61,552 bases of DNA from an uncultured Planctomycetales bacterium (GCA_964642815.1 CAZXSA010000001.1:1-61552); one strand, 5' to 3'; shown: positions 5,252 through 31,339, numbered from the stretch's first letter. The notes: generated from the letters alone by a model not told the origin. A program made the numbers and translations.

Positions 5252-5279
5252 GAAATGAGCAGCACGGCCGTAATAAATA

Positions 5280-6686: not shown

Positions 6687-6697
6687 GTTAATGACGG

Positions 6698-7126: not shown

Positions 7127-7130
7127 TTGG

Positions 7131-7168
7131 CTCTCCTTCGCCCCTCGGGGCCTTCCCAAGAAGGAGAG
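7131..7168 (-). promoter_or_regulatory. stem-loop sequestering the tnpA Shine-Dalgarno sequence
   Basis: Perfect 9-bp pairing between 7131..7139 (ctctccttc; its complement GAAGGAGAG is the SD on the mRNA) and 7160..7168 (gaaggagag). It encloses an inner hairpin GCCCC-TC-GGGGC (7140..7151). Confidence 0.6.
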
Positions 7169-7407
7169 CTTACACCTAACCAACAAAACGACGGAACAGC
7201 AGAGCTTTATCGAGTCTCACCGCCAAAGGCGGTGGATTACCAATCGATTTATTGGATATCGACATCTCAAGGGAAGACCGTCCAGCAATTTGACCGCGAG
7301 TCGTCATCGCTCTCGGGTAACCGGCCGCAATATATCGATAAAACCAATGCCGGCTCCTCCATGTATTGTGGTTGGAAAGATAAATCCGACCCATGAAAAA
7401 ACATCTA

Positions 7408-9147: not shown

Positions 9148-9211
9148 AAATGCCTTTGCTGGCTCGACGCCTCAGGGAGTCATCCTGCCCGGCGCGAACA
9201 ACCCCTGATCC

Positions 9212-11557: not shown

Positions 11558-11685
11558 GATGAAATCCCCGATGGAATGACCGGATGGTTCTCGACATGCT
11601 TGGATGAGTCACCACGCCGGTACCCGAATCATTTATCGAAAAAGGTAACCGAAAATAATCGGCCAGGTTCAGTCCTAAAACCTGT

Positions 11686-12987
11686 TTAGACCCGGCGGTT
11701 CCCCCACGGCATTTTGGCGTTCGAGGCCATCGGCGGCACTGTGGGATTATTTTCGTTCACCGGGAGATTTTGTGGAACGTCAAACCGCTGGGCATCGCCC
11801 TGTGCGATCTTGCCCTGCCCGGGCCATCCGGATCGCCAGGCCGAATCGGTGGTTTTTACGGAGGCTGAATCCTCGGATGAATCGGACGGCGCAAGCCATG
11901 CCGGAACCCGTCCGGATGGATCGCCGATACAAACCATGTTGCTCAACACCGCGTGGGCCGACACCCTCGCCTGGTCCGTAAGGATGCACCGGTCCAGTCT
12001 GGCCGGACCATATACCCGGCAATCGCGCCACAAAACGGAACGACTGACCACCGTATGATGGCCGACATAAGAACCCATTCCGAGAATCGAGGGACCGACG
12101 ATAATGGCCTGATCCTCGACCACGCAGGCGGGCTCGACCAGTACCGGCCCAATGAAACGGGCATGGTTCGAGATTCGGGCGGTTTTATGAACCAAGGCCA
12201 ACTTGTAACGCTCGTAATCGGCCGGACACAATCCCCAGCGCGCCATCTGGCCAATAAGATATTGATTGACCGAGAGGTAGGATGCCGTATCGATGATCCG
12301 AAGTATCGCGTCATGCTCGACCACGTAGCGCGCGATATGTTCGCCCTTGGCGTAAAGATCTGGAATCAGCTTTTCCTTGATATCCTGATAACCCTTCGTC
12401 GGAATATCCGCCAAGGCTTGGGGGGCAAAAACATAAATACCCGCCGGCTTGAGCCATTCCCGACCGTACGACTCCCCCGGTCGATCGCGGACGACGGCTA
12501 CGGTCAGAACGGCTCTGGACTCCAGATGTTTCCGCAGTAAATCGTTCAGATCAATTTGCGGAAGGATGGCGCCCTCGACCACCACGTAGGCCTGCGCCTC
12601 TCGATCAAGCAATGCGTCATGCACGCAACCAGCCGGCCCGCGCGGCGTCATGTCCACGTAGTAATCCAGGTCCATCCGAAACGCGCTTCCGGCCCCCAGC
12701 CAGTGGCGAAGGTGTTTCGTGTCGCTGTTGGCGCAGATCGTTACCCCCTCCACCCCCCCCTTCCGCAACCATTGCAGGATATGCGCAACGATCGGCCAGC
12801 CGATCACCGGTAACAGCGGCCGAGACACGACTTGATCCAGGGCGGATGCACCCCAGCGATGCACCCCGGCCAGAATAACCCCTTGAATCGGTGTCGATGG
12901 CGCATCGTGCCCCCTTCCTTCGTCCGGATAGTTCCGGGGAAAACAGGTTTCACGCGCGACCGCATCGGAATGCTTGTGCTTACCCAT
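11686..12987 (-). CDS. NDP-sugar pyrophosphorylase-like nucleotidyltransferase with C-terminal left-handed beta-helix
   Basis: GVILAGVHRWG...RPLLPVIGWPIVAHILQWL is a G-x-G-x-R-type NTP_transferase N-terminus. C-terminal hexapeptide-like repeats (IGPVLVEPACVVEDQAIIVGPSILGMGSYVG). Confidence 0.7.
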   Translation of the reverse strand: MGKHKHSDAVARETCFPRNYPDEGRGHDAPSTPIQGVILAGVHRWGASALDQVVSRPLLPVIGWPIVAHILQWLRKGGVEGVTICANSDTKHLRHWLGAGSAFRMDLDYYVDMTPRGPAGCVHDALLDREAQAYVVVEGAILPQIDLNDLLRKHLESRAVLTVAVVRDRPGESYGREWLKPAGIYVFAPQALADIPTKGYQDIKEKLIPDLYAKGEHIARYVVEHDAILRIIDTASYLSVNQYLIGQMARWGLCPADYERYKLALVHKTARISNHARFIGPVLVEPACVVEDQAIIVGPSILGMGSYVGHHTVVSRSVLWRDCRVYGPARLDRCILTDQARVSAHAVLSNMVCIGDPSGRVPAWLAPSDSSEDSASVKTTDSAWRSGWPGQGKIAQGDAQRFDVPQNLPVNENNPTVPPMASNAKMPWGNRRV

Positions 12988-13245
12988 TTCCCTTCTCCAT
13001 TGCGCATGCCGCCATAAGCATGATATGATGATCGCTTGGAAAGCCGAGGGCCGCGCAATCCCTTACACGCCCGCCGAAATCAGTAGATCCTGACTTCCTC
13101 GTTCCGGATCACGTTGAAGATGCCTCTCTTGCCTGGATCGTGTAACTTGTACCCGGATCATGTTTCCGGGTCCGCGTATCTCGCGCCGAGGAGGCTGCTC
13201 GATTTTTCGGTCAGAAAGGTAACCAGGCGTCACGCGTCGACGGAA

Positions 13246-15270
13246 TCACGATTGAATCCGAAGCATTGTATAAAATGACGCATCCTGTCGCCAATCCGCC
13301 AGGGCACCAAGGCTCCAGGCCGCCGTCTTCCGATGATAACCGCGACTTACCCAGCCCAATATCGGTTTCTGGTTCCCGTGGAAGGTGGTCACGGAAAAAG
13401 CCGGAGCAAACTCGATACGGACTTTCACGCCCCGGGTTCTCGCCTCGAAAAGGTGGCTGCCTATCTGTTCAAGATCGCAATGCTCGGCCAAATGAAGATG
13501 AAACGCCGCGCGATGGGATCCCCGGCCGGATAACTCATCCCGAATGCTGATTTCCGATTGCGCCCCTCGCAAAATGATGGTACGCCGATGGATCACTTGC
13601 TCGGCATCTTCGGCAGACCCGCCGTATTCTCCGACGACCACGCCGCCGTCGCGTTCCGGTTTCCAGGAAAGACATCGGGCGACGGCTCGACGGCCCCACA
13701 AAAACGGCCCCAGAATCTCCGCCTGATTGCGCTGGTCGATCTCGATCGTATTGTGCGCCCGCGTACTTCGGAAATAATCGCGCCAGTGCGGATAGGTAAA
13801 ATAATCGTACGTACCGGGATCCACCAGAATCTCGATCCCCCCGATTTTCAAACTGAAGCTCAGCAGATCGGCATGTCCATGAGCGGCAAGCGAACCCCAA
13901 CCCAACTCACCACAGTCAAAGTTCAGGCTGATCGAATCCGCCCGACCCCGATGGCCGCTTTGCAGCAGATAATAACCGGTATCGGGAAAAGACCGGGATT
14001 CCAGAGCGGTAAGATCGGAAACCGGCAGTCGTCGGTAACGATCATACCCGTCCGGTCCGAGCAGCCAGAAAACCCGTTCACCACAACCGGTGGCCAGCGT
14101 CTTAAAATCCGGACGGTCAAATAGCACCGCCCCGACCGCCAGCAATTCCGCGGGCCGGTTCCGGCGATTGTCCAGATCCAGAACGTAACCGTCGTCGCTG
14201 TCCCCGAACATCGGCGGAGGGCCGCCGTCTTCCATGAAGCCGGCCAGGAAAACAAACATCTGTTCGAGCCGCTCCCAATACGCGCGGGGAAAATCGTCGC
14301 CAAGGTGACGTGCCGTCAAGGCCGCCAGGAGAAACAACTCCAGGGTAAACAGGTGGTAGCCCATCGCCTGCTCGCGATTGCCGCCGTCGGCATGTGTCTG
14401 GGTCATAATCTCCCTGAGGAGAATATCCCGACTCCGCCGGCGCCATGCGGCCGTTTTTCTCAGCGCGCGAAAATAACTGCAAACGATAAAAGTGCCCGCC
14501 GCTTCGCCGATAAGATGATTGTTCGCGGATGAATAGCGCGAGTATTTCCGGGTGATTTCGTACAGATGAAAGCGCACCACGTCGAGCAGACGAGACCAGT
14601 CCGTCTTGCCGATCGCCTCGCTGGGGCGAATCAGCTCGAAAGCCCATGCCCAATTGATCAACCGAATCGCCAGCTCCAGCGGGCTGCGCCAATTCATCCC
14701 CCGCCCGTAGGGACACTGGGCAACCCAGGAATCCCATTGGTTCCGTAAAGCCGTGGCGTACCGCGTTCGCCCGCTCAGACGATAGGCCCGACCCAGCACC
14801 ACCCAATGGTGGTGCCGATTCGGCTCCCATACGAATTTGCAGTCTCCTGTCTGCTCGTAACAACGATAATCAATCCGGGCGGCATGCCTCATCGGTGTCT
14901 TTTTGCCCGCTTTGTGTTCATAATTCCAATCGACCGGTTCACCCAGACTGAGGTCCTCAAGATCGAACAAATCCATTCGATTCAGGACCAGGCTCTCCGC
15001 TCGCTCGATCAGCGCCGCTCTCCATGAATCCATCCCCGGAATGGCGGGACTCGCGGCCCCCACCAACGGCAAGCACGGACTCAATACATCGCCCCTGACG
15101 ATTGCCTGAACATCGCCTGACAGGGCGAACCCGGCCGACCGCGCGAAGGAACGACGCAATGGGGCCGCCCAGCAATCCAGCGAGGAGCCGACCCTGCACC
15201 GCAGACGCCACCCAATTTCAGGCAGCGACATCGCCCGGAATCGACGTGTGTACCATGTCAAAGTAGGCAT
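13246..15270 (-). CDS. heparinase II/III-like (alginate-lyase superfamily) protein
   Basis: WEPNRHHHWVVLGRAYRLSG, SSANNHLIGEAAG and LAAHGHADLLSFSL are characteristic blocks of heparinase II/III-family proteins found in EPS loci. Confidence 0.7.
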   Translation of the reverse strand: MPTLTWYTRRFRAMSLPEIGWRLRCRVGSSLDCWAAPLRRSFARSAGFALSGDVQAIVRGDVLSPCLPLVGAASPAIPGMDSWRAALIERAESLVLNRMDLFDLEDLSLGEPVDWNYEHKAGKKTPMRHAARIDYRCYEQTGDCKFVWEPNRHHHWVVLGRAYRLSGRTRYATALRNQWDSWVAQCPYGRGMNWRSPLELAIRLINWAWAFELIRPSEAIGKTDWSRLLDVVRFHLYEITRKYSRYSSANNHLIGEAAGTFIVCSYFRALRKTAAWRRRSRDILLREIMTQTHADGGNREQAMGYHLFTLELFLLAALTARHLGDDFPRAYWERLEQMFVFLAGFMEDGGPPPMFGDSDDGYVLDLDNRRNRPAELLAVGAVLFDRPDFKTLATGCGERVFWLLGPDGYDRYRRLPVSDLTALESRSFPDTGYYLLQSGHRGRADSISLNFDCGELGWGSLAAHGHADLLSFSLKIGGIEILVDPGTYDYFTYPHWRDYFRSTRAHNTIEIDQRNQAEILGPFLWGRRAVARCLSWKPERDGGVVVGEYGGSAEDAEQVIHRRTIILRGAQSEISIRDELSGRGSHRAAFHLHLAEHCDLEQIGSHLFEARTRGVKVRIEFAPAFSVTTFHGNQKPILGWVSRGYHRKTAAWSLGALADWRQDASFYTMLRIQS

Positions 15271-16114
15271 GAATCAGCCAACATATCCAAGCCACGGCCG
15301 AAACCGACAACACCTTTGAATACCAATCCAGAAATACCGGATCGCATAAAAAGCATGGTTGAGGCCGCGACAACCTCCATCCAGACTCCGTCCCCGTCAG
15401 CCGCATCAAAAAACAACTGTAACCTTTTGCAAATGCGGCCGTTACGATCATGAATGGAATGTTAGGAATAAAAATGGCCGGCTTAATGGTCCGGCCATAT
15501 CGCTCATAAAACTGTCATGCATTCCCCCGCACCGGGCCTTTGCCCAACACGAAAACACCAACCGTGACCCGTTAAGCCCAAATCACTTGTTCATAATGAA
15601 ATGCTCACATACCAAGCCGATCCGTGGCCACGAGAGAACTCGTCAAGCCGTTGATGCGTCCTTACCCTTACGCTCTTAACCGCACATGATGAACGGCTTA
15701 CGGATTTGTTCCCCTTCCCTTTTTACCCTGTGGATTTTCAGGGCATACCCTAAAAGCCAACCCTGTTTATGAATACATATTACCTAGAAAATCCCTCAGA
15801 AGTCAAGCGTAAAATCCTGTCAAAGGGCGACTTATCAGACTGAAGAGATGTAAAGTTTTCTAGTAATAATTCTCCACAATAGGCTATGCGATTTTTTTCT
15901 TGCAAATTCCACGTCAGGGAAGGTATGATTCTTTGTGTGTTCATGTTCTGGATGAGCCCCTGAAAAGGCATTTATTCTCCAAAATTGTGACTTATCGATG
16001 CTTCCGGGAATTTCTGACAGCCTCGATTTGGGTACCGCCCCATGCGTGGCTTCCCGGCGAATAATTACATAAGCCGTTGTTCAGAAAAGACATACATCAT
16101 CGAGGGTGCATGGG

Positions 16115-17554
16115 ATGTCGCTATCTGGAACGGGGAAAAGGTCAATTCTCGCGGTTGCGATCCCGCTGCTTGTCTCGGGATTTCCCATACCCATTCAAGG
16201 TCAACCCTGCGATCCGATCTGGTCGACGGGATTTCATCTGCAAGGCATGAATAACATCGTTCAAACGATGACCGTCCATGACGACGGCCACGGACCGGCC
16301 GTTTATGTCGGGGGCATGTTCACCGAGGCCGGCAACACAGTCGTTAATCATATTGCCAGATGGGACGGGTTTCACTGGCGGTCGCTTGGTGGTGGCATGG
16401 ACAATGAGGTTTGCGCATTGGCCGTCTATAACGACGGGACCGGCCCAGCCCTTTACGCCGGTGGGAAATTTCACACGGCTGGGGGAGTGACAGTCAACCA
16501 CATCGCCAAATGGAATCCCGGTTCGCCCGGTTCATGGTCGCCATTGGATATCGGCACTGACGACGACGTAGGTGCCTTGATGGTCTATGACGACGGTGGG
16601 GGTTCAAAGCTCTATGTCGGCGGCATGTTCTCCCAAGCCGGCGGAATTTCGGCAAACCGCATTGCCCGCTGGGACGGCACCCATTGGTCCGCGGTAGGCA
16701 ACCGTGTCACGGGTTCTCCGCCCCTAAACTTATCCTTTATTCGAACCATGGCCGTCTATGACGATGGGACCGGCGCGGCCCTCTATGTCGGCGGTTTGTT
16801 TACTTCGCCGGGCAAGAATATCGCCAAATATAACGGGGTTTGGAGTAGTCTGGGTGCCGGAACCAGCAACATCGTGAATACCCTAGCCACTTTCAACAAC
16901 GGCACGGGCGAGGCCCTATACGTGGGAGGAACTTTTACTTCCGCCGGTGGGGTTGTGAACGCCCGACGCATCGCCCGCTGGAACGGGACGCAATGGTCGG
17001 CTCTCAACAGCGGCCTGGGTGATGAACCGGTAAACGCACTGGCCGTCCATGATGACGGCACGGGCGAGGCCTTATATGTCGGGGGACAGTTTACCCATGC
17101 CTTCGGGGTGGAAACCCGGCGAATCGCCCGCTGGGACGGGGTCAACTGGTGGCCGCTGGGCGCAGGCATTGTCGATGACGAATCCAATCCGGAATGGTGC
17201 GGCTTGCCCGCGCCGCAATGCGGGCCGAAGCCGGCCTCCGTGCATACACTGCTGGCCTTCGATGAACAACTTTTCGTCGGCGGCGATTTCGCCTGGGCCG
17301 CCGGTGTAGCCTCCAAGAACATGGCCCGTTGGTCATGCCCCATCTCACCGGACCTGGAAGGCGACGGTGACGTGGACGCCATCGACTATTCGCTCTTCCA
17401 GTCTTGCGCCACAGCCCCGGGCATTGCCGCGGGCCCACCGTGTAACACGGCCGATCTGGACAACGATACGGATGTCGATCAGGACGACTTTGCCATATTT
17501 CAAAGATGCTTCACCGGAACCGATCTACCCAGCAATCCGGCCTGCCTGCCGTAA
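16115..17554 (+). CDS. secreted 7-bladed beta-propeller repeat protein with C-terminal 4-Cys dockerin-like tail
   Basis: Signal-peptide-like N-terminus (ATG 16115 has GAGGG 8 nt upstream; the track ORF starts at GTG 16106). Seven repeats of consensus V.ALAVYDDGTG.ALYVGG.FT.AGGV....IARWDG..W..LG. The tail is DLEGDGDVDAID...DLDNDTDVDQDDFAIFQRC. Confidence 0.6.
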   Translation: MSLSGTGKRSILAVAIPLLVSGFPIPIQGQPCDPIWSTGFHLQGMNNIVQTMTVHDDGHGPAVYVGGMFTEAGNTVVNHIARWDGFHWRSLGGGMDNEVCALAVYNDGTGPALYAGGKFHTAGGVTVNHIAKWNPGSPGSWSPLDIGTDDDVGALMVYDDGGGSKLYVGGMFSQAGGISANRIARWDGTHWSAVGNRVTGSPPLNLSFIRTMAVYDDGTGAALYVGGLFTSPGKNIAKYNGVWSSLGAGTSNIVNTLATFNNGTGEALYVGGTFTSAGGVVNARRIARWNGTQWSALNSGLGDEPVNALAVHDDGTGEALYVGGQFTHAFGVETRRIARWDGVNWWPLGAGIVDDESNPEWCGLPAPQCGPKPASVHTLLAFDEQLFVGGDFAWAAGVASKNMARWSCPISPDLEGDGDVDAIDYSLFQSCATAPGIAAGPPCNTADLDNDTDVDQDDFAIFQRCFTGTDLPSNPACLP

Positions 17555-17620
17555 TCCGGGCACCTCGCGGGTTTGGCCGTCAAGGATACGGGAAGCATGG
17601 GCAATAAGGGACGACGTATC

Positions 17621-18403
17621 ATGACAAAAGGGCTTGTCTTAATCGCGATTTTGGGTGCGTTTCTCGGCACGGCCGAAACCGCTTTGGGCGGCGTAACCCT
17701 TACGATCGTGGACACGGAGGGTGACCCCCATCGCACGAAAGTCCAGGCCGGTTCGCCGTTCGAGGTTATTCTCCAGGTCGATACCACGATCAGCATCCTG
17801 GGTTTGCAGGTGCGCATCCAGGAAACGACGGAATCACCTTCCGGTTTGTTTCAGTTGAATTCGGTCAGTTTCCAAACCCCGCCCTGGAGCAGCGACGGTA
17901 ACGATCAGTTCAAGCCCGTCATGCCCGACCTGATGGACGGCCCGAGTTACCAATCCGGTCACATCGCCGACACGGCCGCCGATCTGCAAGAGGGAACGGG
18001 CATCGGCATTTTTTCTTTCGTAACGCTCAGCCTGACCTTCGTCGGGCCGGTGAACTTCCTGACCGGTCTTCTGAACCTCGTCGATATCGTTTACGGCGAT
18101 CTGAACTATGATGAGCACACCGGTACCGCCGGGACGGACTACGAGGTTACGGTGATCTTTCCTCCGGACCTGGACGATGACGGAGACGTGGACATGGATG
18201 ACCTCGCGATTTTCGAGCTTTGTCGGACCGCCTCCGGCATCGGGCCTCCCGGCCGATACTGCGATCCACAAACCGAGGATTGCGGCCCCTGCCCAAGGGC
18301 AGATCTGGACGCGGACGAGGATGTCGATCAGGACGATTTCGCCATTTTCCAGCGATGCTTTAGCGGCAGCGACCAGCCCGGCAACGCATACTGCCTGCCA
18401 TAA
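17621..18403 (+). CDS. secreted cohesin-like module protein with C-terminal 4-Cys dockerin-like tail
   Basis: Start set at Met17 of the track ORF (MTKGLVLIAILGAFLG signal-like). Residues encoded by 17693..18157 are paralogous to 24081..24540. The tail is DLDDDGDVDMDD...DLDADEDVDQDDFAIFQRCFSG. The cohesin assignment is inference from length and strand pattern. Confidence 0.55.
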   Translation: MTKGLVLIAILGAFLGTAETALGGVTLTIVDTEGDPHRTKVQAGSPFEVILQVDTTISILGLQVRIQETTESPSGLFQLNSVSFQTPPWSSDGNDQFKPVMPDLMDGPSYQSGHIADTAADLQEGTGIGIFSFVTLSLTFVGPVNFLTGLLNLVDIVYGDLNYDEHTGTAGTDYEVTVIFPPDLDDDGDVDMDDLAIFELCRTASGIGPPGRYCDPQTEDCGPCPRADLDADEDVDQDDFAIFQRCFSGSDQPGNAYCLP

Positions 18404-19380
18404 GACAGCATAAACGTTTGTGTTAAGCGACCATGCAATCAGAACCCGGAGCAGGAGCGACGGGCCGGTGTAGAATATCGCACCGAGTACTGGGAATTTG
18501 TCCTCTTTCGGCCCCGCGCTTCCCCGCCACGGCCCGCCCAGGCGAGGCTCCGCCGAGGCGAGCGAGGTAAATGGCTTCGGGTTTTGATGGGCCATGCCGG
18601 CGAGGGTTGCATGTTCGCTCAACACATACAAACAAACCCTTTCGACAAAGCCGACAACGAGTTCATAATATATATTCTTATAAAGACTTATAAATACAAA
18701 GGATGGGTATGTCTTTCCGTTACGCTGCTGTTCCCAACGTCGTATACAAAGTTTCACGTACGAGAAGAACACATGGATACGAATGAGCCAAGGGATTAAA
18801 TTAATTTCGCTAAAAACAAAGCAAACATATTAGCCATCGTGTTGTTGAATGATTAGGTCACAAGTCTTTTTCCACATGCATTTTGCGCGTTAAAAATCCC
18901 CACCGACCCCTCGTCAAATTTATTTCGCAAACATAGGGATTTTTCTTGATTCATGAAAGAAAACAGGTTAATCTGATTATCGGTCAGGCCACGGGTTTTC
19001 AGCCTGAAGATCACATTCTAGTCGCGCGTCCCGCACAGGGAGGGAAGAAATTCAGAGCAAGTAACGCGTATGACATTTTCTTTGTTGAACAGGCCCGAGG
19101 GCCAACGCGGCCGTGTTTTTCCATTGGCTCGCGTGGCGCCGAAGCCAGCTTGCCGGGTCATGTTTATGAGAAACGTATTACGCAAAGACGGAAAACATCA
19201 AACGATTTCGGCGGACCGGAATCCTGAGAAGGAGAATTAGAGCCAGAAGGATAACCACCGAGGAGCGATGGGGATGTTTCTTTTCGTAAGCATCATCAAT
19301 CCCTATTCGTCTGGCCAAGGTGAGTTATGCATCGCGGAAAACCCATCTTGCCCCACGGGGCGTGGAATGGAGGTTAAGTC

Positions 19381-22300
19381 ATGAGTTTCAATTTACGTAT
19401 CACCAAAGGCGCATGTGTCGTCCTGGCGGTGCTGTGCCTTGCCCCCGCCGCGTTTGCCGTGGATACGGTGATGAAATCCTATGAAGGCAACTATAGTGGA
19501 TGGGGGCATCAATGCGGTGCCGTCGACGGCACGAGCGATTGGAGGACATCCTCGTGTGCCGTTGACCAAGCGTTGATTTATGGGCCTTACGAACAACGCA
19601 TGCAACCTTCGGTGGCGGGACAATTTAAGGCCCGTTTCTGGCTCAAAAGAAACACGGGAACCGGTACCGCGGGTTGCGTCATCGACGTCGTCAACGCGGA
19701 TGGCGGTACACTCCTCGGGCAAAGAACGCTTACCTATAGCGAATTAACCACATCGTATGCCGCCTATGATGTCGATTACACCTGGCCCGGTCCAAACAAT
19801 CGGATTGAAACCCGGGTTTGGGTTAAAAACACCGGTTTCATTTTGTATGTCGATAAAATAGAGCATGTCGTGGTCCATTCCGATACCGCCGAAACCACGC
19901 TAAATGACAGTAATTTCACCAGCGATACTAACGGCTGGACAACCGCCGGATGGGTTGTTGCCGGTGGAGGTGGAAGTGCGGGTTCAATCACGCGTGACAC
20001 ATCAACCGGTAATCCCGCATCAAGCATGAAGTCCATCGGCTCAGGAACAACAAACAGTAGTGACACTTGTACCCGCGAAGGTACGACCTTGACTAAAACG
20101 ATTTCAACAGCGGGATACACCGATATCAGAGTCACCTACGATATAAGCAGCTATGCGTACAGCTATCCGGGTGATGGGTGTGCAGGAAATTGTACCGCAG
20201 GCCTGCTTCCAGGATCGTATACTTCTACTTTTCCCGATTGTTGGCGGACCAACCAGGACCAGTTAGTTGTCTATTACAGCACGAACGGCGGCACAAACTG
20301 GAATAAAGCCCAGATACTTACGGAGCGAGGAGATAATGGAAGCGAGGCGTTGCCTGGAGGCAACGGCACCACCTGGGCAACGAAAACCGTCTATCTATCG
20401 GGCCTGACCGCGGTTGAAAATAACGCCAATTTCGCCCTGCAGTTTAAAACCCAGTTTAACACCGGCTATGACATCATTTGGATTGACAATATCAAGGTCT
20501 ATGGCCGCAGCACATGCACGCCCCCGACGGCCCCGACCAATCCCGGATACGACATAAACAATACCACGACGGCGAAGATTCGCTGGACCTGGACGGACAA
20601 CTCGACCAACGAGACCGGCTTCAAGGTGTACGCCGATCCGGGCGCGGGTCCGCCCACGACCTTGCAGACCACGACTGGGGCCAGCGTGACTTACTGGGAG
20701 TACACGGGTCTTTCCGTCAATACACAATATGCCTTCCAGGTGGCCGCCACCAACGGCTCATGCGACAGCACCAAGACCGCCAACCTGGCCAAGTATACGC
20801 AAGCCAATGTCCCGGCCGCGCCTACCGTGGCTGGGGCGACTCCTTACACGCTTAACGTAACCGTCAACGAGAACAGTAATCCCACCAATACCACGTTTGC
20901 CATAACCATCAGTGGCGGGTCCTACACCGAGGGTACCCATTGGGTTCAGGCGGACGGCTCGATCGGCACAAGTACGGTCTGGCAAACCGATGCGACGTGG
21001 GGAACCAAGACGGTGACCGGCCTGGCCATCGGCACCACTTACACTTTCAAGGTCAAGGCCCGCAACGGCGACAACGTGGAAACAGCCCTGAGCACGGGCG
21101 CCTCCCTGGCTACCCTGACCGAGCCGATCGTCGCGGCCGGCGGAGCGGGCAGCTATTGTTACACCTGGAAACCCAAGCGGGACGGCCCCACCAAATTCAA
21201 CAACGACACGTTGCACACCAATCTTCAGGTACTCGATGAGGGCACGACTTCCTACGTGGCCGTGATGACCCCGGGTACCGGTACGATGACCTGGCATTTC
21301 CGCAGCAATGAGGGAACCAAGTTCTCCACCGACGTGACGGTTAAGACCATCTGGACCTTTTTCACGGCGGCCTCGAATTACATTAAAGGCGAATGGAGCA
21401 CGAACGGCACTAACTACACGGAGTTTATCTATCTGGATGCCAACGATGAGTGGTACGCCGAGGAGATCACCGCGCTGAACACCCGCGGTTACACGACCTG
21501 CAGCCGCGATTTATACATCCGTTACACGATGTACAACGCCTCGGCCATTAACCAGGTACAGATATGGCGCGATACCACGACGCATACCGACGAGAAGTTC
21601 TATCTTTGCGGCACCATTGTGGCGGCCCCCGTCGCCCCAGCCTCGGCGAGCAACACCGGTCCGATATGCGCCGGGGCCAGCGCCACGCTGAACGCAACCG
21701 GCGGTTCGGGAACGACGCTGAAATGGTATACAAGCAGTTGCGGAGGCACCCTTGCCGGTTCGGGAAACGGCCTGAGCGTCAGCCCGACCACAACAACCAC
21801 TTATTACGCCCGCTGGGAAACCCCTTGCGAAAATTCGACCTGTGCGCCGACCACCGTGGACGTAAACCCGTTACCGACCGCCCCAGCCTCTGCACAAACG
21901 GATCGGAACAATTTCTGCGCGGACGATTCAGGTAACATCAGCCTGTCGGCCACCGGCGGATCGGGCACCACGCTGAAATGGTACGCCGCCGGTTGTGGTA
22001 GCGGCACTTCGATTGGTTCGGGCACGCCCCTCGAGATCGCCTCACCGACGGAAACGACAACTTACTATGCCCGTTGGGAGAATTCCTGCGGATACTCGAA
22101 CTGCGCAAGCGTGACCGTGACGGTGTTACCGCTGCCAACAACGCCGGCCTCGGCACAAGTGGATCGGGACAATTTCTGCGCGGACGACTCGGGCAATATC
22201 AGCCTGTCCGTCACCGGAGGCAGCGGAACCACGCTCAGATGGCTTACCGGAAGTTGCGGCGGCACATCCATCGGCACGGGCAATCCGCTGGTCATCGCCT

Positions 22301-23976
22301 CACCGACGGAGACGACCATTTACTATGCCCGCTGGGAAACCTCCTGCGGTAACTCAAATTGCGCCGGTGTCACCGTGACCGTCTTGCCATTGCCGACGGC
22401 CCCGACCCAAGCTCAGGTGGATCGAAATTATTTCTGCGCGGACGACACAGGCAATGTCAGCCTGTCGGCCACCGGCGGATCGGGCACCACGCTGAAGTGG
22501 TACACCGGCGGTTGTGGTAGCGGCACCTCTATGGGTACGGGGACGCCCCTCGTCATCGCCTCGCCGACAGAGACCACAACTTATTATGCCCGCTGGGAGA
22601 CCTCCTGCGGTAACTCGGCCTGTGCCAGCGCCACCGTGACGGTGTTACCGTTGCCCGTGGCCCCGGTCTCGGCAAGTAACGACGGCCCGGTATGCCCAAG
22701 TGAAGCCGTCACCTTGACCTATTCCGGCGGATCCGGAACCACCTTGCGATGGCTGGCCGGAAACTGTAACGGCGAGTCGGTCGGCACGGGACAAAGCCTG
22801 GTAGTGTACCCGACACAAACGACGACCTTCTACGCCCGCTGGGAAACCTCCTGCGGCACCTCAGGTTGCGTGTCAACCACCGTGACGGTGAATCCGTTGC
22901 CGGCGGCTCCGACCTCGGCAAGCAACGACGGCCCAGTATGCGCCGGCTCCAGCGCCACGCTGAGCTACAGCGGAGGTTCGGGAACAACATTGAATTGGTA
23001 CGCGGGCGGATGTGGCAGCGGCACCCCCATCGGTTCGGGCAATAACCTGAACGTGAGCCCAACCTCAACGACCACTTATTATGCCCGTTGGGAAACCACC
23101 TGTGGTAACTCGACTTGCGAATCGACCACGGTGACGGTGGCGGCCAACACGCAGATTACCGATCATCCGGAAGACCAGAACGTGGTGGAATACGGGACGG
23201 CCAGCTTCACCGCCGCCGGCACCGGCGAGGGAGAACCCGGTTACCAGTGGCAGAAATACAATGACGCGACCGAAACCTGGGACGATCTGGACGGGGAGAC
23301 CGCGGACACCCTGGAGATCGCGGGCGCGATCGATGACGACGAAGGTCTGTACCGTTGCATGGTTACGGCCGACTGTGACGCGGTACCCACCGACGCCGCG
23401 GAGTTGACCATCGCCCCGCAAATCCTCACATGGGAGAGTGTCAAGGTGCATGGGAGCGCGGGCGAGATCGCCTTGGCCATGCCCGCGGGCACCCCGCTGG
23501 TCGAGCCGCGCCGGGGCGATCTGGTCATCCGACTGACGTTCAATCGGGAGGTTCTCGCCGCCGACGGGACGCTGGATGCCAATGATTTGACTATCAAGGA
23601 TTCCGCGAATAATAGCTACACCCCGAAAGCCCTGGCCTTCAGTAACGGCAGCCAGGGGAACGAACTGGAAATCACCCTCGACGGAACCCAGGCGGACCGG
23701 AAGCGACTGACCCTGGAGCTGGCGGACGGCAAATTCCGCCGGCCGACCTCGACCAAGGCGGTCCTGGCGGGAGGCCGCAACCGCGTGATTCGCTACCTTA
23801 TCGGAGACTTGGATGGCAGCGGGGCGGTTAATATCTTGGATTGCAACGCATTCAAACAAGAAGTCCTTCAGGCCGCCACCGCGGACAACGCCCGTTGCGA
23901 TGTGAATACAAGCGGTAGCATTACCATCGTGGATCTGGCCCTGATCAAGAGCAATCTGGCTAAAACCGTACCCTGA
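19381..23976 (+). CDS. giant secreted adhesin-like protein: jelly-roll-like N-terminus, 2 FN3-like domains, 6 tandem Cys-containing repeats, Ig-like domain, C-terminal dockerin
   Basis: Signal peptide ending AFA|VD. FN3-like segments about 20518..21120 (KIRWTWTDNSTNETGFKVY). Tandem repeats 21625..23142. Ig I-set-like segment 23149..23415 (GLYRCMV). Two-segment dockerin 23803..23973 (DLDGSGAVNILD, DVNTSGSITIVD). Confidence 0.7.
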   Translation: MSFNLRITKGACVVLAVLCLAPAAFAVDTVMKSYEGNYSGWGHQCGAVDGTSDWRTSSCAVDQALIYGPYEQRMQPSVAGQFKARFWLKRNTGTGTAGCVIDVVNADGGTLLGQRTLTYSELTTSYAAYDVDYTWPGPNNRIETRVWVKNTGFILYVDKIEHVVVHSDTAETTLNDSNFTSDTNGWTTAGWVVAGGGGSAGSITRDTSTGNPASSMKSIGSGTTNSSDTCTREGTTLTKTISTAGYTDIRVTYDISSYAYSYPGDGCAGNCTAGLLPGSYTSTFPDCWRTNQDQLVVYYSTNGGTNWNKAQILTERGDNGSEALPGGNGTTWATKTVYLSGLTAVENNANFALQFKTQFNTGYDIIWIDNIKVYGRSTCTPPTAPTNPGYDINNTTTAKIRWTWTDNSTNETGFKVYADPGAGPPTTLQTTTGASVTYWEYTGLSVNTQYAFQVAATNGSCDSTKTANLAKYTQANVPAAPTVAGATPYTLNVTVNENSNPTNTTFAITISGGSYTEGTHWVQADGSIGTSTVWQTDATWGTKTVTGLAIGTTYTFKVKARNGDNVETALSTGASLATLTEPIVAAGGAGSYCYTWKPKRDGPTKFNNDTLHTNLQVLDEGTTSYVAVMTPGTGTMTWHFRSNEGTKFSTDVTVKTIWTFFTAASNYIKGEWSTNGTNYTEFIYLDANDEWYAEEITALNTRGYTTCSRDLYIRYTMYNASAINQVQIWRDTTTHTDEKFYLCGTIVAAPVAPASASNTGPICAGASATLNATGGSGTTLKWYTSSCGGTLAGSGNGLSVSPTTTTTYYARWETPCENSTCAPTTVDVNPLPTAPASAQTDRNNFCADDSGNISLSATGGSGTTLKWYAAGCGSGTSIGSGTPLEIASPTETTTYYARWENSCGYSNCASVTVTVLPLPTTPASAQVDRDNFCADDSGNISLSVTGGSGTTLRWLTGSCGGTSIGTGNPLVIASPTETTIYYARWETSCGNSNCAGVTVTVLPLPTAPTQAQVDRNYFCADDTGNVSLSATGGSGTTLKWYTGGCGSGTSMGTGTPLVIASPTETTTYYARWETSCGNSACASATVTVLPLPVAPVSASNDGPVCPSEAVTLTYSGGSGTTLRWLAGNCNGESVGTGQSLVVYPTQTTTFYARWETSCGTSGCVSTTVTVNPLPAAPTSASNDGPVCAGSSATLSYSGGSGTTLNWYAGGCGSGTPIGSGNNLNVSPTSTTTYYARWETTCGNSTCESTTVTVAANTQITDHPEDQNVVEYGTASFTAAGTGEGEPGYQWQKYNDATETWDDLDGETADTLEIAGAIDDDEGLYRCMVTADCDAVPTDAAELTIAPQILTWESVKVHGSAGEIALAMPAGTPLVEPRRGDLVIRLTFNREVLAADGTLDANDLTIKDSANNSYTPKALAFSNGSQGNELEITLDGTQADRKRLTLELADGKFRRPTSTKAVLAGGRNRVIRYLIGDLDGSGAVNILDCNAFKQEVLQAATADNARCDVNTSGSITIVDLALIKSNLAKTVP
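21625..23142 (+). repeat. six in-frame tandem repeats of 82-87 codons inside the giant adhesin gene
   Basis: Unit starts at 21625, 21871, 22129, 22387, 22648 and 22894. Consensus PLPxAPxSA...C......L.a.GGSGTTL.WY.G.CG....G.G..L.v.PT.TTTYYARWET.CG.S.C....VTV. Units 2-4 share long identical DNA runs (for example cagcctgtcggccaccggcggatcgggcaccacgctgaa occurs in units 2 and 4). Confidence 0.9.
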
Positions 23977-24008
23977 GAAGGGCTCAATGAATAAGTAAAG
24001 GATGGTGG

Positions 24009-24635
24009 ATGATGAAAAGAGGTTTTATCTTATCAGCAACCGTTGGCGTGCTTCTGGGAGCGACCGGGGTTTGGGGATTCCCAACCCTCACGATCGTGGA
24101 CACGGTCGACGACCCCAACAGCATCAGCACGACCGCCGGGACCACGTTTAATGTTCAGGTGCGGGTCAACACCGACGTGAGCCTGACCGGCCTGCAACTG
24201 CGCGTGCAGGAGACCACGGCGCCGCCCTCCGGCTTCTTTCAGTTGAATTCGGTCAGCTTTAATACGCCCACCTGGAGCAGCGATACCGGCGATCAATACG
24301 TGCCCGCCCTGCCGGACCTGATGGACGCAGCGAGTTATAAAACCGATTACATCGCAGATCTCGCCGGCGACTTGGTCAACGGGACGGGTACGGGGACTTT
24401 CTCTTTCGCGACCCTGAACCTGACCTATACCGGCGCGCTGCTGGGCACGTACACCCTGAACCTGTCGGACATTCTTTACGGCGACCTCAATTTCGACGAG
24501 TTCACCAACGCCCTGACCGGTCAGGACTACGTAGTGACGATCATCCCCGCGCCCGGGGCCACTCTACTCGGCATGATCGGCCTGGGCTGCGTGGGCTGGT
24601 TGAAAAGACGATGGCCCCAATCGCTGACTAATTAG
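24009..24635 (+). CDS. cohesin-like module protein with PEP-CTERM-type C-terminal sorting signal
   Basis: Signal-like N-terminus. The module is paralogous to 17693..18157. The C-terminus IPAPGATLLGMIGLGCVGWLKRR (24540..24632) has a P-x-P motif, a hydrophobic helix and a basic cluster, as in PEP-CTERM/exosortase substrates. Confidence 0.65.
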   Translation: MMKRGFILSATVGVLLGATGVWGFPTLTIVDTVDDPNSISTTAGTTFNVQVRVNTDVSLTGLQLRVQETTAPPSGFFQLNSVSFNTPTWSSDTGDQYVPALPDLMDAASYKTDYIADLAGDLVNGTGTGTFSFATLNLTYTGALLGTYTLNLSDILYGDLNFDEFTNALTGQDYVVTIIPAPGATLLGMIGLGCVGWLKRRWPQSLTN

Positions 24636-24658: not shown

Positions 24659-25009
24659 ATGATACTCAAGCCGTTGAGAAGGCGGTCGTTTCCTTTAGCA
24701 GGATTAACGGCCGCCTTTGTCGTGGCCTTCATCGCCCACGACATGGCCCGCTCCGATTTCACGGATACGGGATCCACCGACATCGAGAACCAAAAAAGGA
24801 TCCCCCGAGCCCTTCCCCAACCCGCGCCCGAGGAAAATCCATTCGTCGCCAAGGCAGACCGGCTATACAATGAAACGACCTTATCTCGGCGGCGGACGGA
24901 GCAAACCTGGTGGAGCAAATGGGAAAACGCGGCGGCCTTGGTATTGCTGGCCGGCTTGGTGGGCTTTTTTACTTACCGGATAATCGTTTTCAGGCATATC
25001 CGAAGGTAA
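24659..25009 (+). CDS. hypothetical small membrane protein (two predicted TM segments)
   Basis: ATG ORF 24 nt after the PEP-CTERM gene. Hydrophobic segments LAGLTAAFVVAFIA and AAALVLLAGLVGFFTYRIIVF. No recognisable family. Confidence 0.35.
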   Translation: MILKPLRRRSFPLAGLTAAFVVAFIAHDMARSDFTDTGSTDIENQKRIPRALPQPAPEENPFVAKADRLYNETTLSRRRTEQTWWSKWENAAALVLLAGLVGFFTYRIIVFRHIRR

Positions 25010-25158: not shown

Positions 25159-25779
25159 TCAACATGAAGGACCAGCATCGATCCAGGAAGGCGGGTCGAT
25201 TATTTCGACCAGATCGTTCGCCACCTCGACGCTGACACTTTGCCCCAGAATAGTCACGTTCAGGTGGAGCTTCGCGCCTTTGGCGAGATATTCGATCACT
25301 CCCTCCAACCCCTGCAGCGGACCGGCAATGATCCGTACCCAGTTCCCGGTTCTTAAATATCGGGTGACGAACAATTCGGGCGTATTACTCAGCAAACGCT
25401 GGATGTGCAACAACTCAGTAATCAATTGTTGTTGATCCGGAACATTGAGCACATGGGCAATGCGATTGGTTTGCAAGGCTCGATACCGCTGTTCCTCGCT
25501 CCCTTTGAAAAAGAGGTATCCGCGGAATAAGGGAACCAGACTCCGGGACACCCGCCGGGTGGTCCGGCTACGGGTGACGCTCTGCCGTAGCGGCAGGTAA
25601 TGAGGAATTTTCAGACGAGACAGCTCTTCCGCCAGTTTTTTCTCTTGTCGCGCCCGCGTATGGGCAACATACCACCGGCCGGAACCTGCAGCGGTAAGTT
25701 GACATTCGGATTGCATCGCGATCGCCCTACCGGCCGCCTGATGCGACGGACTTTCAGGACCAGAGGTAAAACCGGACAT
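25159..25779 (-). CDS. NusG-like transcription antitermination factor paralogue (RfaH/UpxY-like)
   Basis: NGN-like start WYVAHTRARQEKKLAEELSRLKIPHYLPL. KOW motif GNWVRIIAGPLQGLEGVIEYL. A later start at MQSECQ is possible. Confidence 0.75.
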   Translation of the reverse strand: MSGFTSGPESPSHQAAGRAIAMQSECQLTAAGSGRWYVAHTRARQEKKLAEELSRLKIPHYLPLRQSVTRSRTTRRVSRSLVPLFRGYLFFKGSEEQRYRALQTNRIAHVLNVPDQQQLITELLHIQRLLSNTPELFVTRYLRTGNWVRIIAGPLQGLEGVIEYLAKGAKLHLNVTILGQSVSVEVANDLVEIIDPPSWIDAGPSC

Positions 25780-26160: not shown

Positions 26161-28488
26161 ATGGTCGATCGGAAACCGTCATCCTCATATTCGCGGCCAG
26201 CCTCGGGCGGCGGCTCGCGCAAGGACGGACGCCCGAGCAGGCAGCGACCGCCTCGCCCCGCGCTTCCGACTCCGGAGAACGATCATAAGGAGACGCCACT
26301 ATTGCCGCCGGTTGATCCGGAACAAGCGGTCACCGTGCGGGCGGGCAGGGCGACGGCGCCTTGGGGGTCGATGAATCTATCGCTTGCGGGTTTGTCCGGA
26401 CTCATCGAGCCGTTGGCTATCCTCGTCGGGTTGGCCGCCGGCTGGCAGTTGTTCGGCATGCGGATGATCGTGGCGGCGGCGATGGATCCACTCCCCTCGA
26501 CCTCGATCATGGTAGTCGCCATCGCTTTGCTGGCCGCGGCTTTGGGACCTTGGTTTCCCGAACGGGTCATTCTATGGGTAACCCGTATGGTTACTCGACG
26601 GACCCAGAAGCACGACGGCCCGATCGGTGACGTGTCCGGCACGTTCTGGATGTTGCGGGCGGCGCGCGAGCGTGACCCGGCCATGCATTGGCTCGCCGTC
26701 TCCGTGCTATCCACCGTCGCCGCTCTGGCGGCTTTGCTCACCCTGGCCCTGACCCGGCCGTCTATTCAGCTTTACCACTATTTGCTGGAGCGTTTTTTCT
26801 GGACCAGCACGACCCTGGCCGTTCTGGAATGGACCGGCGTATCGCTTTTCCTTGGAGGTTCGTGGGCGTTAAATGGACTGGTGCTCTCCACCTTGTGGTC
26901 CGTCTGGGGCGTGGGGCGGGCCGCCTCGCGTCACTCGGCCGGCGTCCCCTCGGGCTTGATGATCGGTTTTGCTCTGGCGGCCTGGACTCATGAAGCCTGG
27001 GTCAGTGGCGGCTTGTCGGGTGGGCAGAGTTATATGCTCGGCATTTTACCAATGTTCATACTAGCCGGCGTGGCCGCCAAACGTTCGCAACAATTGGACC
27101 TGCCACCCCGCCAACCCCCCGTTTTGGATTCCGCTACTCCGGAGTTCAGCGCGGCCGCCGAAAGGATTATCTGGATATCCCTGGTCGCCTGGGGCGTAGC
27201 CACCGCGTGGGCGGTGCAGGGCTGGATGGCCTGTCGGGCGATCACTACACCGATTGGCTTGCCAACCCTTGCGACCGCCGGGTGTATCCTCGTGGTCGGG
27301 CTTGGTTTTCTCCTCGCTTCGTATAGAAGCCGTCATCACGACGGCACGGCCTCGGGTTGCGGCATGGCCTTGTGGGTTGCGGGACTGGGCATGGCGGCCG
27401 CGGCCACCAGCGTTGCTTTCTGGCCGACGGGGCATTGGGCGGGGCTGGTCCAGGCCCTCTGTCTGGGCTGGCCGACAGGATACGCGTTGCGCTATATTAA
27501 ACGTGCCTGGTTGGCCCGGGTGGGCAGTGAAACCCTGGGCTACGAGCAATTGCTCAGCGCCGTATTTGGCGGTCTGGGAATCGGCCTGCTTTCCGGCCAT
27601 TTCTGGGCAGGCCCCCAACTCGGCGCAATGGGTACGATCAGCGCCGGTTCACTGATGCTGATGGCCTGGGGCGGTTTGCTGCAAATCTACGTGAACGATC
27701 GGCCGCTGCGCATTCAGCATCAACGACTGGCGTTAGTGTTCGCCTCGCTGGCGGGGGCCATCGCCCTGCTGCCGGCCGATGCGCGCAGGTGGGTCGAATT
27801 TCGACGCGGGCTGCCCCAGTCCGTCCCGGCAACCGTGCAACTCGACTGGCTCGGGGAGACCGCCCCTTTGATGGGACGGCGGGTGGCCATGATCGGGATC
27901 ACCGCCGATGAGGCGTTGGCCTGGTGCGGTCCGCGGCCCGTGAGAGTGGAGGTCATGCCGTTGGCGCGTTCCTGGTCCTCCGCTCATCCGCCGGTACGTT
28001 TTTCGGATCAAGTAATATTATTCGCCGACAGCGCTTTTCGCCGTCTTCGCTACGAGCATGGCTTGTACGATCTGATCTATCAGCGCTGTCGATCCGCTCC
28101 ATGCCTGGCGCGTTTCGCGGAATATTCCGACGAATGGTTTGTTCTATTGGCCACCCGTGTCGCGTCGGGTGGCGAGGTGGTCGTGGATGTCCCCATTTCC
28201 GGGTTAAGCGCTGAAGCCCTCGCCGTCATCGCCGCCACGTTTCAGCAGGCCATGCCCGGCCCGACGGGATGGACGCTCGTGCGCGCCGAGCCGGCGTACC
28301 TTCGCCTTCGGGCCTTGGTGGGCGATCGGGAAAATCGAATCCTCCGTTTGGAAACTTCCTGGATGTCGCTGGACCGCCTCCTGACCGAGGATGTACGCCC
28401 TCATTCGATACTGCGGGACCGCGTGACCCCACGGCTCGCGCTCGATGAACTGAAATCCGCGGATTGGGAGAACTTGCTAAAACCCTGA
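26161..28488 (+). CDS. polytopic membrane protein with C-terminal spermidine-synthase-like (class I MTase fold) region; function unknown
   Basis: Arg/Pro/Ser-rich N-terminus, more than 10 hydrophobic segments, then VAMIGITADEAL...VRVEVMPL...YDLIYQR, which resembles the fused-MFS/spermidine-synthase family layout. A later start at MNLSLAGLSG is possible. Confidence 0.4.
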   Translation: MVDRKPSSSYSRPASGGGSRKDGRPSRQRPPRPALPTPENDHKETPLLPPVDPEQAVTVRAGRATAPWGSMNLSLAGLSGLIEPLAILVGLAAGWQLFGMRMIVAAAMDPLPSTSIMVVAIALLAAALGPWFPERVILWVTRMVTRRTQKHDGPIGDVSGTFWMLRAARERDPAMHWLAVSVLSTVAALAALLTLALTRPSIQLYHYLLERFFWTSTTLAVLEWTGVSLFLGGSWALNGLVLSTLWSVWGVGRAASRHSAGVPSGLMIGFALAAWTHEAWVSGGLSGGQSYMLGILPMFILAGVAAKRSQQLDLPPRQPPVLDSATPEFSAAAERIIWISLVAWGVATAWAVQGWMACRAITTPIGLPTLATAGCILVVGLGFLLASYRSRHHDGTASGCGMALWVAGLGMAAAATSVAFWPTGHWAGLVQALCLGWPTGYALRYIKRAWLARVGSETLGYEQLLSAVFGGLGIGLLSGHFWAGPQLGAMGTISAGSLMLMAWGGLLQIYVNDRPLRIQHQRLALVFASLAGAIALLPADARRWVEFRRGLPQSVPATVQLDWLGETAPLMGRRVAMIGITADEALAWCGPRPVRVEVMPLARSWSSAHPPVRFSDQVILFADSAFRRLRYEHGLYDLIYQRCRSAPCLARFAEYSDEWFVLLATRVASGGEVVVDVPISGLSAEALAVIAATFQQAMPGPTGWTLVRAEPAYLRLRALVGDRENRILRLETSWMSLDRLLTEDVRPHSILRDRVTPRLALDELKSADWENLLKP

Positions 28489-30791: not shown

Positions 30792-31339
30792 GGGAAATCG
30801 ATTTCTTACCGAGGAATTTTCGCCGAGCCGCCCGGTTACGGCAAACGCGTCGGCGACTGGCCGTTCTGGCCGGACTGGCGATGGTGTCCCTGGTGCTTCA
30901 TCTGACCTATGAAACGCGGGTGGACCGCGCCCTGGCGTCGTCGTCCGGTTTGTCCGGAGATCGTTTCGGTGACTTGGCGGCGACGGCGCCCCTGCTCGGC
31001 CCTGAACCGGCGAACTCCGACAAGCCAGCCGACCTCGACTCTCGTGTTGCCCGGGCGGAACAGGCCATCCTCCGCCTCATGAACAACGAGTATCAATTAC
31101 GCTGCATGTCTTTTGAAACCGGAAACAAAGTGGGCTCCGACGCGACCCTTCTCCATGGACGCATACAGGCTGTCGCGAAAAGTGAGTTGTCGGTCGGCAT
31201 CCTCATGGGCCGACTCGCGGCCTGTCCGTTCTTCAAGGAGATGCATCTGAATGAGCTACGGGAGGTCCGCGAGGCCGGTCGGCCAATGCGGGAATTTGAA
31301 CTGACTTGCACCTTGAACCTGGACGGGTTCTCGAAATGA
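30788..31339 (+). CDS. pilN: PilN-like bitopic membrane protein
   Basis: MREIDFLPRNFRRAARLRQTRRR, then a single TM (LAVLAGLAMVSLVLHL), as in PilN (INLLP-type N-terminus). 4-nt ATGA overlap with pilM. Confidence 0.6.
   Translation: MREIDFLPRNFRRAARLRQTRRRLAVLAGLAMVSLVLHLTYETRVDRALASSSGLSGDRFGDLAATAPLLGPEPANSDKPADLDSRVARAEQAILRLMNNEYQLRCMSFETGNKVGSDATLLHGRIQAVAKSELSVGILMGRLAACPFFKEMHLNELREVREAGRPMREFELTCTLNLDGFSK

Follow-up and report, generated by a model that had tools for sequence, protein, structure and literature searches.

An 8.5-kb gene cluster from an uncultured Planctomycetales bacterium encodes two secreted paralogs that share an N-terminal module, one continuing into a dockerin-like tail and the other into a PEP-CTERM-type sorting signal. 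The cluster lies in a stretch of 61,552 nucleotides (GCA_964642815.1, CAZXSA010000001.1:1-61552), the whole of which was analyzed and is hereafter called the window. An initial annotation of this DNA had proposed a cohesin- and dockerin-like surface assembly locus, and the four open reading frames (ORFs) that it named were found where it placed them, all on the plus strand. The first encodes a secreted 7-bladed beta-propeller protein (16106..17554; 482 amino acids [aa], with an alternative ATG at 16115). The second encodes a 260-aa protein (17621..18403; here, the dockerin-tailed paralog) made up of a signal peptide, a cohesin-like module (17690..18160), and a type-A dockerin-like tail (18161..18400). 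A 1531-aa secreted giant adhesin-like protein follows (19381..23976), and the last ORF encodes a 208-aa protein (24009..24635; here, the PEP-CTERM paralog) with a signal peptide, a cohesin-like module (24078..24545), and a PAP-variant PEP-CTERM tail (24546..24632). Across all 61.5 kb, six-frame motif scans found exactly four ORFs with dockerin loops (starting at 16106, 17621, 19381, and 54284) and a single real PEP-CTERM-type ORF (starting at 24009), while a hidden Markov model (HMM) scan found exactly two copies of the shared module, one per protein. Three of the four dockerin ORFs fall inside the 8.5-kb cluster that contains both modules.

The two paralogs align at 54% identity over 183 residues (E value of 1e-60), a region comprising a Sec-type signal peptide and the module of ∼156 aa. 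This alignment bears out the earlier description of a pair whose common N-terminal module is about half identical, and the strings quoted as shared (TLTIVDT, GLQ.R.QETT, PSG.FQLNSVSF, PDLMD, GTG.G.FSF, and YGDLN.DE) were recovered. Immediately past a common ...VT(V/I)I, the two sequences diverge: the dockerin-tailed paralog reads FPPDLDDDGDVDMDD...DLDADEDVDQDDFAIFQRCFSG...CLP, and the PEP-CTERM paralog reads PAPGATLLGMIGLGCVGWLKRR. As annotated, the former terminates in a pair of calcium-loop segments rich in Asp (DLDDDGDVDMDD, DLDADEDVDQDD), whereas the PAP-variant tail IPAPGATLLGMIGLGCVGWLKRR closes the latter. The module of the dockerin-tailed paralog matches the family HMM at an E value of 1.2e-54, and its orthologs P0007 and P0009 (family members are numbered with the prefix P, related loci with the prefix L) retain its architecture.

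The fold of the module was predicted with AlphaFold2, run without templates on an alignment of 44 family sequences that contained no cohesins. The resulting model has nine strands, a predicted local distance difference test score (pLDDT) of 97.5, and a predicted template modeling (TM) score of 0.91, with pLDDT values of 97.0 to 97.5 across the five models. When this structure was compared with the PDB by Foldseek, 76 matches were returned at an E value of ≤1e-3, and the top ∼39 were nearly all cohesins. The best match was the CohA2 cohesin of Clostridium acetobutylicum (6kgf_C; E value of 3e-8, TM scores of 0.71/0.75, probability of 1.00). Cohesins of types I, II, and III as well as non-cellulosomal cohesins were matched with TM scores of 0.6 to 0.75 and a probability of 1.00. 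Among the matches were the single-cohesin anchors OlpC (4dh2) and OlpA (3ul4) of Clostridium thermocellum, the ScaC adaptor cohesin (5lxv) and ScaB cohesins of Ruminococcus flavefaciens, type II cohesins, Clostridium perfringens cohesin modules, and a non-cellulosomal cohesin of Archaeoglobus fulgidus (2xdh). Because neither a template nor a cohesin sequence entered the prediction, this structural match constitutes independent evidence. The predicted module is a nine-stranded jelly roll superimposable on solved cohesins, and the guess of a cohesin-type beta-sandwich survived its own fold test. According to this model, the module is a cohesin fold belonging to a divergent family outside current libraries. 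A first AlphaFold2 model built from 9 close sequences (pLDDT of 57.6), which gave weak Foldseek matches to CBM4, CBM6, and viral capsid jelly rolls, was dropped as a low-confidence artifact once the 44-sequence alignment reached a pLDDT of 97.5.

Sequence comparisons of the family point in the same direction, at sub-threshold scores. Pfam Cohesin was matched at an E value of ≤1 by 10 of the 44 aligned members (best E value, 1.5e-4), and any other family was matched by at most two. The Cohesin alignments span the whole domain in register (for example, residues 42 to 163 of P0058 correspond to positions 7 to 129 of the 139-position model). A profile of the 44 sequences, searched against PDB sequences, detected a ScaB cohesin of R. 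flavefaciens (5n5p_A) at an E value of 6e-4. The module sequence on its own, compared with Pfam and NCBIfam and, by phmmer, with PDB sequences, gave no useful match.

The tails of the four dockerin ORFs were compared with Dockerin_1 (PF00404; gathering cutoff of 22.9 bits), both within the full proteins and as isolated segments in an alignment of nine tails, comprising the four from the window and five from family members. All nine isolated tails match the model. For the window, the earlier proposal held in that all four tails match, and two of them pass the cutoff: that of the giant protein (41.8 bits isolated, 33.4 bits in the full protein) and that of the propeller (∼17336..17551; 27.2 bits isolated, 22.9 bits in the full protein). 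The fourth tail (56021..56233) closes a secreted 650-aa protein of the ADP-ribosylglycohydrolase family (54284..56236, plus strand; Pfam ADP_ribosyl_GH, E value of 1.4e-33), which has a signal peptide visible in its sequence and is encoded ∼30 kb from the cluster. A profile of the nine tails retrieved solved dockerins first (E value of 7e-11), before generic EF-hands, in agreement with the assignment of the tails as dockerin type. Each tail is built of two segments in tandem, in which a 12-residue Asp/Asn calcium loop leads into a helix. For the dockerin-tailed paralog and the giant protein, a regular expression detected the two loops; for the propeller and ADP-ribosylglycohydrolase tails, it detected one per tail, and the first loops of these two, DLEGDGDVDAID and DFNGDNHVDQDD, are visible in the sequences and in the nine-tail alignment.

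Two types of tail can be distinguished. Type A, with conserved cysteines (D.D.D.DVD..DF..FQ.C..G....C.P), is found on the propeller, the dockerin-tailed paralog, and the ADP-ribosylglycohydrolase protein. The propeller tail is 68% identical to that of the dockerin-tailed paralog, in line with the claim that the two are of the same type, and the Dockerin_1 match of the latter is interrupted by an 11-aa Cys-rich linker insertion. Type B is a canonical dockerin (23803..23958) carried by the giant protein, which ends, as claimed, in the two segments DLDGSGAVNILD ... DVNTSGSITIVD.

The proteins bearing these tails are proposed as candidate cargo: the propeller, the giant adhesin, and the ADP-ribosylglycohydrolase protein. 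The propeller shows the expected seven blade repeats of the [IM]A[RK][WY][DNS] type and matches Pfam Rax2 (E value of 3.8e-12) and DUF5122 (E value of 2.4e-11). The giant protein is ordered as an N-terminal region, an fn3 domain, six CHU_C-associated Ig domains (Ig_7, six stretches; E value of 3e-58), an I-set domain, a module here called X (∼23437..23790), and the dockerin. Its last ∼190 residues are homologous to the C-terminal halves of P0028 (E value of 3e-15) and P0054 (E value of 4e-13), both of which consist of the cohesin-like module, an X module of ∼115 aa, and a Dockerin_1 domain above the cutoff (27 bits). The X module always precedes the type-B dockerin and travels with it as a unit (23437..23973 in the window). 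Giant proteins of the window, L001, and L009 carry this X-dockerin unit, and in P0028, P0054, and P0045 it is joined directly to the cohesin-like module; given the homology, it is one cassette that occurs either fused to the module or on a neighboring giant protein. The X module has no significant match among PDB sequences, and a homolog search with an alignment of the cassette returned only 3 proteins.

The ending of the PEP-CTERM paralog (PAP...KRR) scores 13.7 bits against TIGR02595, under the cutoff of 16 bits, and the protein gives weak matches to NF038129 and to the FxDxF PEP-CTERM family. Among 10 family members, 5 with PEP rather than PAP have aligned tails that pass TIGR02595 (17.4 to 26.2 bits). 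The ending is read, as in the initial annotation, as a PEP-CTERM variant.

The family to which the module belongs comprises 51 clusters at 50% identity (E value of ≤1e-3 when 1.84 billion representative proteins were searched exhaustively with HMMER); a word-indexed protein search returned only 8 relatives, one named as coming from a Phycisphaerales metagenome-assembled genome (MAG). Family members are mostly ∼200 to 220 aa long and normally end in a PEP-CTERM sorting signal, with ∼40 of the 51 representatives consisting only of a signal peptide, the module, and a PEP-CTERM-type tail. In a neighbor-joining tree of the module, members with a dockerin tail fall into at least four distinct clades, all nested within the PEP-CTERM members. 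Type A tails mark two of them (the clade of the window's dockerin-tailed paralog, and P0031) and type B tails two others (P0028/P0016, and P0054). A further type-B member, P0045, lies outside the tree and resembles the P0031 subgroup by eye. The PEP-CTERM signal has been swapped at the same junction for a dockerin, either type A or X plus type B, in at least four clades.

Other arrangements were observed within the family. Two tandem copies are present in L004 (315..3641), after two unrelated PEP-CTERM proteins, which suggests islands of PEP-CTERM proteins, and three are present in L023 (1..1945). P0014 and P0020 have 200 to 500 extra residues past the module and a complete PEP-CTERM signal, either through gene-call fusion or as an internal sorting signal. 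P0056 and P0058 (the latter at 10001..10795 of L007) carry a Pro/Thr/Asp-rich linker with four to five repeats of GGTTPPDDG, resembling a scaffoldin linker, and end in a different hydrophobic, Arg-rich anchor that starts with CGAG.

Gene neighborhoods were compared with those of related loci, which lie mostly on short metagenomic contigs and offer short flanks. A search for further loci gave only two MAGs, both already known, in the genome collection and six short contigs in the metagenome collection. A giant X-dockerin protein is encoded directly upstream of the PEP-CTERM paralog in both the window and L001. At L009, a giant protein of 2389 aa (5366..12535) with the same X-dockerin cassette is encoded two genes away from P0059, a distant family member. 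The gene pair of propeller and cohesin-dockerin protein is kept in L014/L015, and at the divergent locus L016 a Rax2/DUF5122 propeller is encoded 8 kb from P0031, both proteins having the same tail subtype. In this small sample, tail identity is 65 to 68% within a genome and 45 to 58% between genomes, even for orthologous proteins. Judged from the sequences, such co-variation is the behavior expected of dockerins that would serve a common, species-specific receptor.

An exopolysaccharide locus, divergently oriented on the minus strand (19..15270), lies directly upstream of the cluster. Pfam and NCBIfam matches indicate that it encodes a Wzy_C polymerase/ligase, a WecG-type glycosyltransferase, a polysaccharide export protein, a priming sugar transferase, a Wzz/tyrosine autokinase, and a sugar-1-phosphate nucleotidyltransferase, together with a sulfotransferase (19..1269), a methyltransferase (1029..1910), and a heparinase II/III-like lyase (13246..15270). 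Taken together, the last three genes hint that the polysaccharide is sulfated and resembles a glycosaminoglycan; near P0059 in L009, too, there is a heparinase II/III gene. Matches in the locus to models of the XrtA/PEP-CTERM system (TIGR03027, TIGR03018, TIGR03013, and TIGR03007) are all below their cutoffs. An exopolysaccharide context is the usual location of PEP-CTERM proteins.

Downstream, 23 bp from the PEP-CTERM gene, a small membrane protein of 116 aa is encoded on the plus strand (24659..25009), possibly in an operon with it. The protein has one predicted C-terminal transmembrane segment and occurs in the same place in L001 (53% identity, E value of 1e-37) and L004 (43% identity, E value of 3e-19); it is missing at the distant locus L009. 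Convergent with the cluster on the minus strand is a NusG paralog resembling the UpxY/RfaH transcription antiterminators (25159..25779; NCBIfam UpxY, E value of 8.7e-25, below the cutoff; Pfam NusG, E value of 1.3e-11), found at the same position in L001 to L004. The 977 bp between the two operon-like gene pairs (18404..19380) contain no convincing plus-strand ORF, Rfam match, or above-chance promoter or terminator. More broadly, an Rfam scan of the window and promoter and terminator scans of the cluster gave nothing above chance. Farther downstream, PilM- and PilN-like type IV pilus assembly genes (29655..31339) lie within a few kilobases of the cluster. At 38295..42716, a UxuA-like dehydratase, a radical S-adenosylmethionine activase (39481..40431), and a glycyl-radical enzyme like pyruvate formate-lyase (40428..42716) form an anaerobic sugar/organic acid module unrelated to the cohesin-like cluster.

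We propose that the locus encodes a small, non-cellulosomal surface display system of the cohesin-dockerin type in a Phycisphaerae-like planctomycete, a reading to which we assign a probability of roughly 50% and in which the binding itself is inferred. All proteins of the cluster would be exported by Sec. An exosortase encoded elsewhere would then cut the PEP-CTERM paralog at PAP and fix it to the envelope or to the exopolysaccharide layer. Once anchored, this protein would act as a single-cohesin mini-scaffoldin like OlpA, OlpC, or ScaE, its cohesin-like face engaging, in the presence of Ca2+, a dockerin that belongs either to a cargo protein or to the dockerin-tailed paralog. The latter could serve as a ScaC-like adaptor offering a second socket, perhaps of other specificity. 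The outcome would be the noncovalent display of adhesin, propeller, and enzyme at the surface, beside the polysaccharide of the adjacent locus. In favor of this reading stand the predicted fold and its sub-threshold echo in sequence, the dockerin type of the tails, the recurrent swap, the fusions with the X-dockerin cassette, the conserved neighborhoods, the co-variation of tails, and the crowding of three of the window's four dockerin ORFs around both modules. A more specific version, in which the exosortase-anchored cohesin family binds both dockerin cassettes, the dockerin-tailed paralog is an adaptor or forms a head-to-tail polymer, and giant adhesins, propellers, and enzymes are held noncovalently in the exopolysaccharide, is put forward only tentatively, with odds that fall somewhat short of even.

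Several observations weigh against the proposed display system. Neither module of the window matches Pfam Cohesin (PF00963) at an E value of ≤1, and the family members scanned individually score 13 to 15 bits, none reaching the cutoff of 24.1 bits. When the family was aligned by hhalign to three C. thermocellum CipA cohesins, for which the template profile is very shallow, the probability was 1.5%, which leaves the family unlinked in sequence to these type I cohesins. Two of the window's dockerin-like tails are under the Dockerin_1 cutoff: that of the ADP-ribosylglycohydrolase protein just so (21.3 bits isolated), and that of the dockerin-tailed paralog more clearly (17.0 bits, E value of 0.0068). 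Among the large and multi-transmembrane ORFs of the window, no Pfam or NCBIfam model match to an exosortase was found, as the initial annotation had noted. An ORF with ∼seven predicted transmembrane segments (26161..28488, 775 aa), syntenic and of the same length in L001, has no match in Pfam, NCBIfam, or the PDB and is not recognizable as an exosortase. The family is tiny and therefore not a general receptor for planctomycete dockerins. Finally, no dockerin gene was found near family members in the available sequence of L007 (13.8 kb), L004 (7.8 kb), or L011, the member itself excepted in the last.

The same architectures could arise if the module were a passenger with a choice of anchor. The module would then itself be the cargo on display, perhaps an adhesive or glycan-binding beta-sandwich, PEP-CTERM signals and dockerins would be interchangeable means of attaching it, and the dockerins would bind some other receptor or, via Ca2+ bridges, an anionic and possibly sulfated exopolysaccharide. 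We consider this explanation possible, if on the unlikely side. It accounts equally well for the exchange of tails at one junction in at least four clades, a further point against a receptor role, and it fits the predominance of members with nothing beyond signal peptide, module, and PEP-CTERM (∼40 of 51), the frequent tandem copies (two in L004 and three in L023), the members with no dockerin gene in their flanks, the adjoining exopolysaccharide cluster with its sulfotransferase and heparinase II/III-like lyase, and the existence of "choice-of-anchor" domain families in NCBIfam. However, the cohesin fold has no well-established role other than dockerin binding, the nearest structural neighbors of the module are functional cohesins, and the window contains no further cohesin candidate. 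A passenger role also leaves unexplained why the same X-dockerin cassette is carried by neighboring giants in two distant lineages and why the tails of propeller and module co-vary within genomes. On cassette fusion, neighborhood, and tail co-variation, it does less well than the display system. A looser association, in which the proteins are secreted and co-regulated beside an exopolysaccharide locus and an UpxY-like antiterminator without physical connection, their tails being generic Ca2+-binding or stabilizing appendages, appears improbable to us. It is general background, for which PMC6461901 cites Peer et al., that dockerin modules occur widely beyond cellulosomes, in many cases with no cohesin identified, and the contexts of distant members vary (DNA repair, extracytoplasmic function sigma factor, and Wzz kinase genes); the promoter and terminator scans, with nothing above chance, likewise count on this side. 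Yet co-regulation alone hardly explains that the module is fused to dockerins of either type in several clades, that gene pairs are conserved, and that tails co-vary within genomes.

It is very improbable that the module is unrelated to cohesins and is instead a generic jelly-roll or Ig-like sandwich (carbohydrate-binding module, pilin, or CsgF-like) with a superficial likeness to cohesins. Apart from the hhalign result and the weak CBM4/CBM6 and capsid matches of the shallow 9-sequence model, the case for such a fold lies in a match of the 44-sequence profile to the curli component CsgF among PDB sequences (E value of 1.3e-4 over ∼100 residues). This match is probably compositional, because CsgF is missing among the 50 Foldseek matches listed, as are CBM4 and CBM6. 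Against the generic fold also stand the agreement of the five deep-alignment models (pLDDT of ≥97.0), the cohesins that top the Foldseek results with a probability of 1.00, and the standing of Pfam Cohesin as the sole recurrent sub-threshold family.

Bacteria classically assemble surface machines through cohesin-dockerin pairs, which act as plug and socket; to our knowledge, nearly all known examples come from Gram-positive cellulose degraders, with S-layer homology (SLH) domains or sortase as the means of anchoring. Non-cellulosomal cohesins and dockerins are well known, and dockerin-tagged proteins are common in Planctomycetota, their partners largely unidentified. Against this background, four features of the proposed system are new: the cohesin-fold family scores below every library threshold, the anchor is of the exosortase type rather than SLH or sortase, two dockerin cassettes have repeatedly taken the place of that anchor, and the cargo is non-enzymatic. 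In the literature searched, PEP-CTERM is never mentioned together with cohesin or dockerin. If the display system is real, it would supply a candidate receptor, missed by standard domain searches, for some of the "orphan" dockerins of Planctomycetota and would represent the first case of a cohesin-dockerin system with a PEP-CTERM anchor. The PEP-CTERM/exosortase and cohesin-dockerin sorting systems would thereby be linked, and new orthogonal binding pairs could become available for protein engineering.

Compared with cellulosomes, the locus differs in the ways that the initial annotation had pointed out: no glycoside hydrolase domain was found on any of the four dockerin-bearing proteins, and the anchor is neither SLH nor sortase type. 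In addition, each protein carries a single module, whereas a cellulosomal scaffoldin has several cohesins. The closest architectural parallels are with individual components of those assemblies. Like OlpA and OlpC (SLH) and ScaE of R. flavefaciens (sortase LPXTG signal), the PEP-CTERM paralog combines a signal peptide, one cohesin-fold module, and a C-terminal envelope anchor; by analogy it may bind dockerins as they do, although here the anchor is a PEP-CTERM signal in a diderm, the sequence is beyond Pfam Cohesin, and the cargo includes no glycoside hydrolase. The dockerin-tailed paralog resembles R. flavefaciens ScaC in having one cohesin-fold module followed by a C-terminal dockerin-like module, but its dockerin contains Cys, has a long linker, and falls under the Pfam cutoff, and neither the organism nor the cargo has to do with degrading plant cell walls.

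A non-cellulosomal cohesin-dockerin surface assembly has been proposed for Phycisphaerae (Nemodlikiaceae) as the "planctosome" hypothesis, a model with Pfam-detectable cohesins, a lamin-tail-domain (LTD) anchor, peptidase cargo, and very large proteins (Andrei et al. 2019, ISME J; PMC6461901). Both proposals place anchoring, adaptor, and cargo proteins at a planctomycete surface. The cluster described here has no match to LTD, peptidase, or Pfam Cohesin models; its sockets would instead be proteins of ∼200 aa that are anchored by PEP-CTERM and belong to a family that Pfam does not detect, and its cargo would be a propeller, an Ig-repeat giant, and an ADP-ribosylglycohydrolase-family protein. 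The X-dockerin cassette recalls the XDoc dyads of type II and III systems, in which a module also immediately precedes a canonical dockerin and moves with it as one cassette (∼115 aa here), except that this X module has no sequence match to any solved structure. PEP-CTERM/exosortase sorting was reportedly tied to exopolysaccharide loci by Haft et al. in 2006. With its ∼200 aa, C-terminal P-x-P motif, hydrophobic helix, basic cluster, and exopolysaccharide neighbor, the PEP-CTERM paralog resembles a classic protein of that kind; it differs in its PAP motif, in its predicted cohesin-fold passenger, and in the replacement of the sorting signal by dockerins in its relatives.

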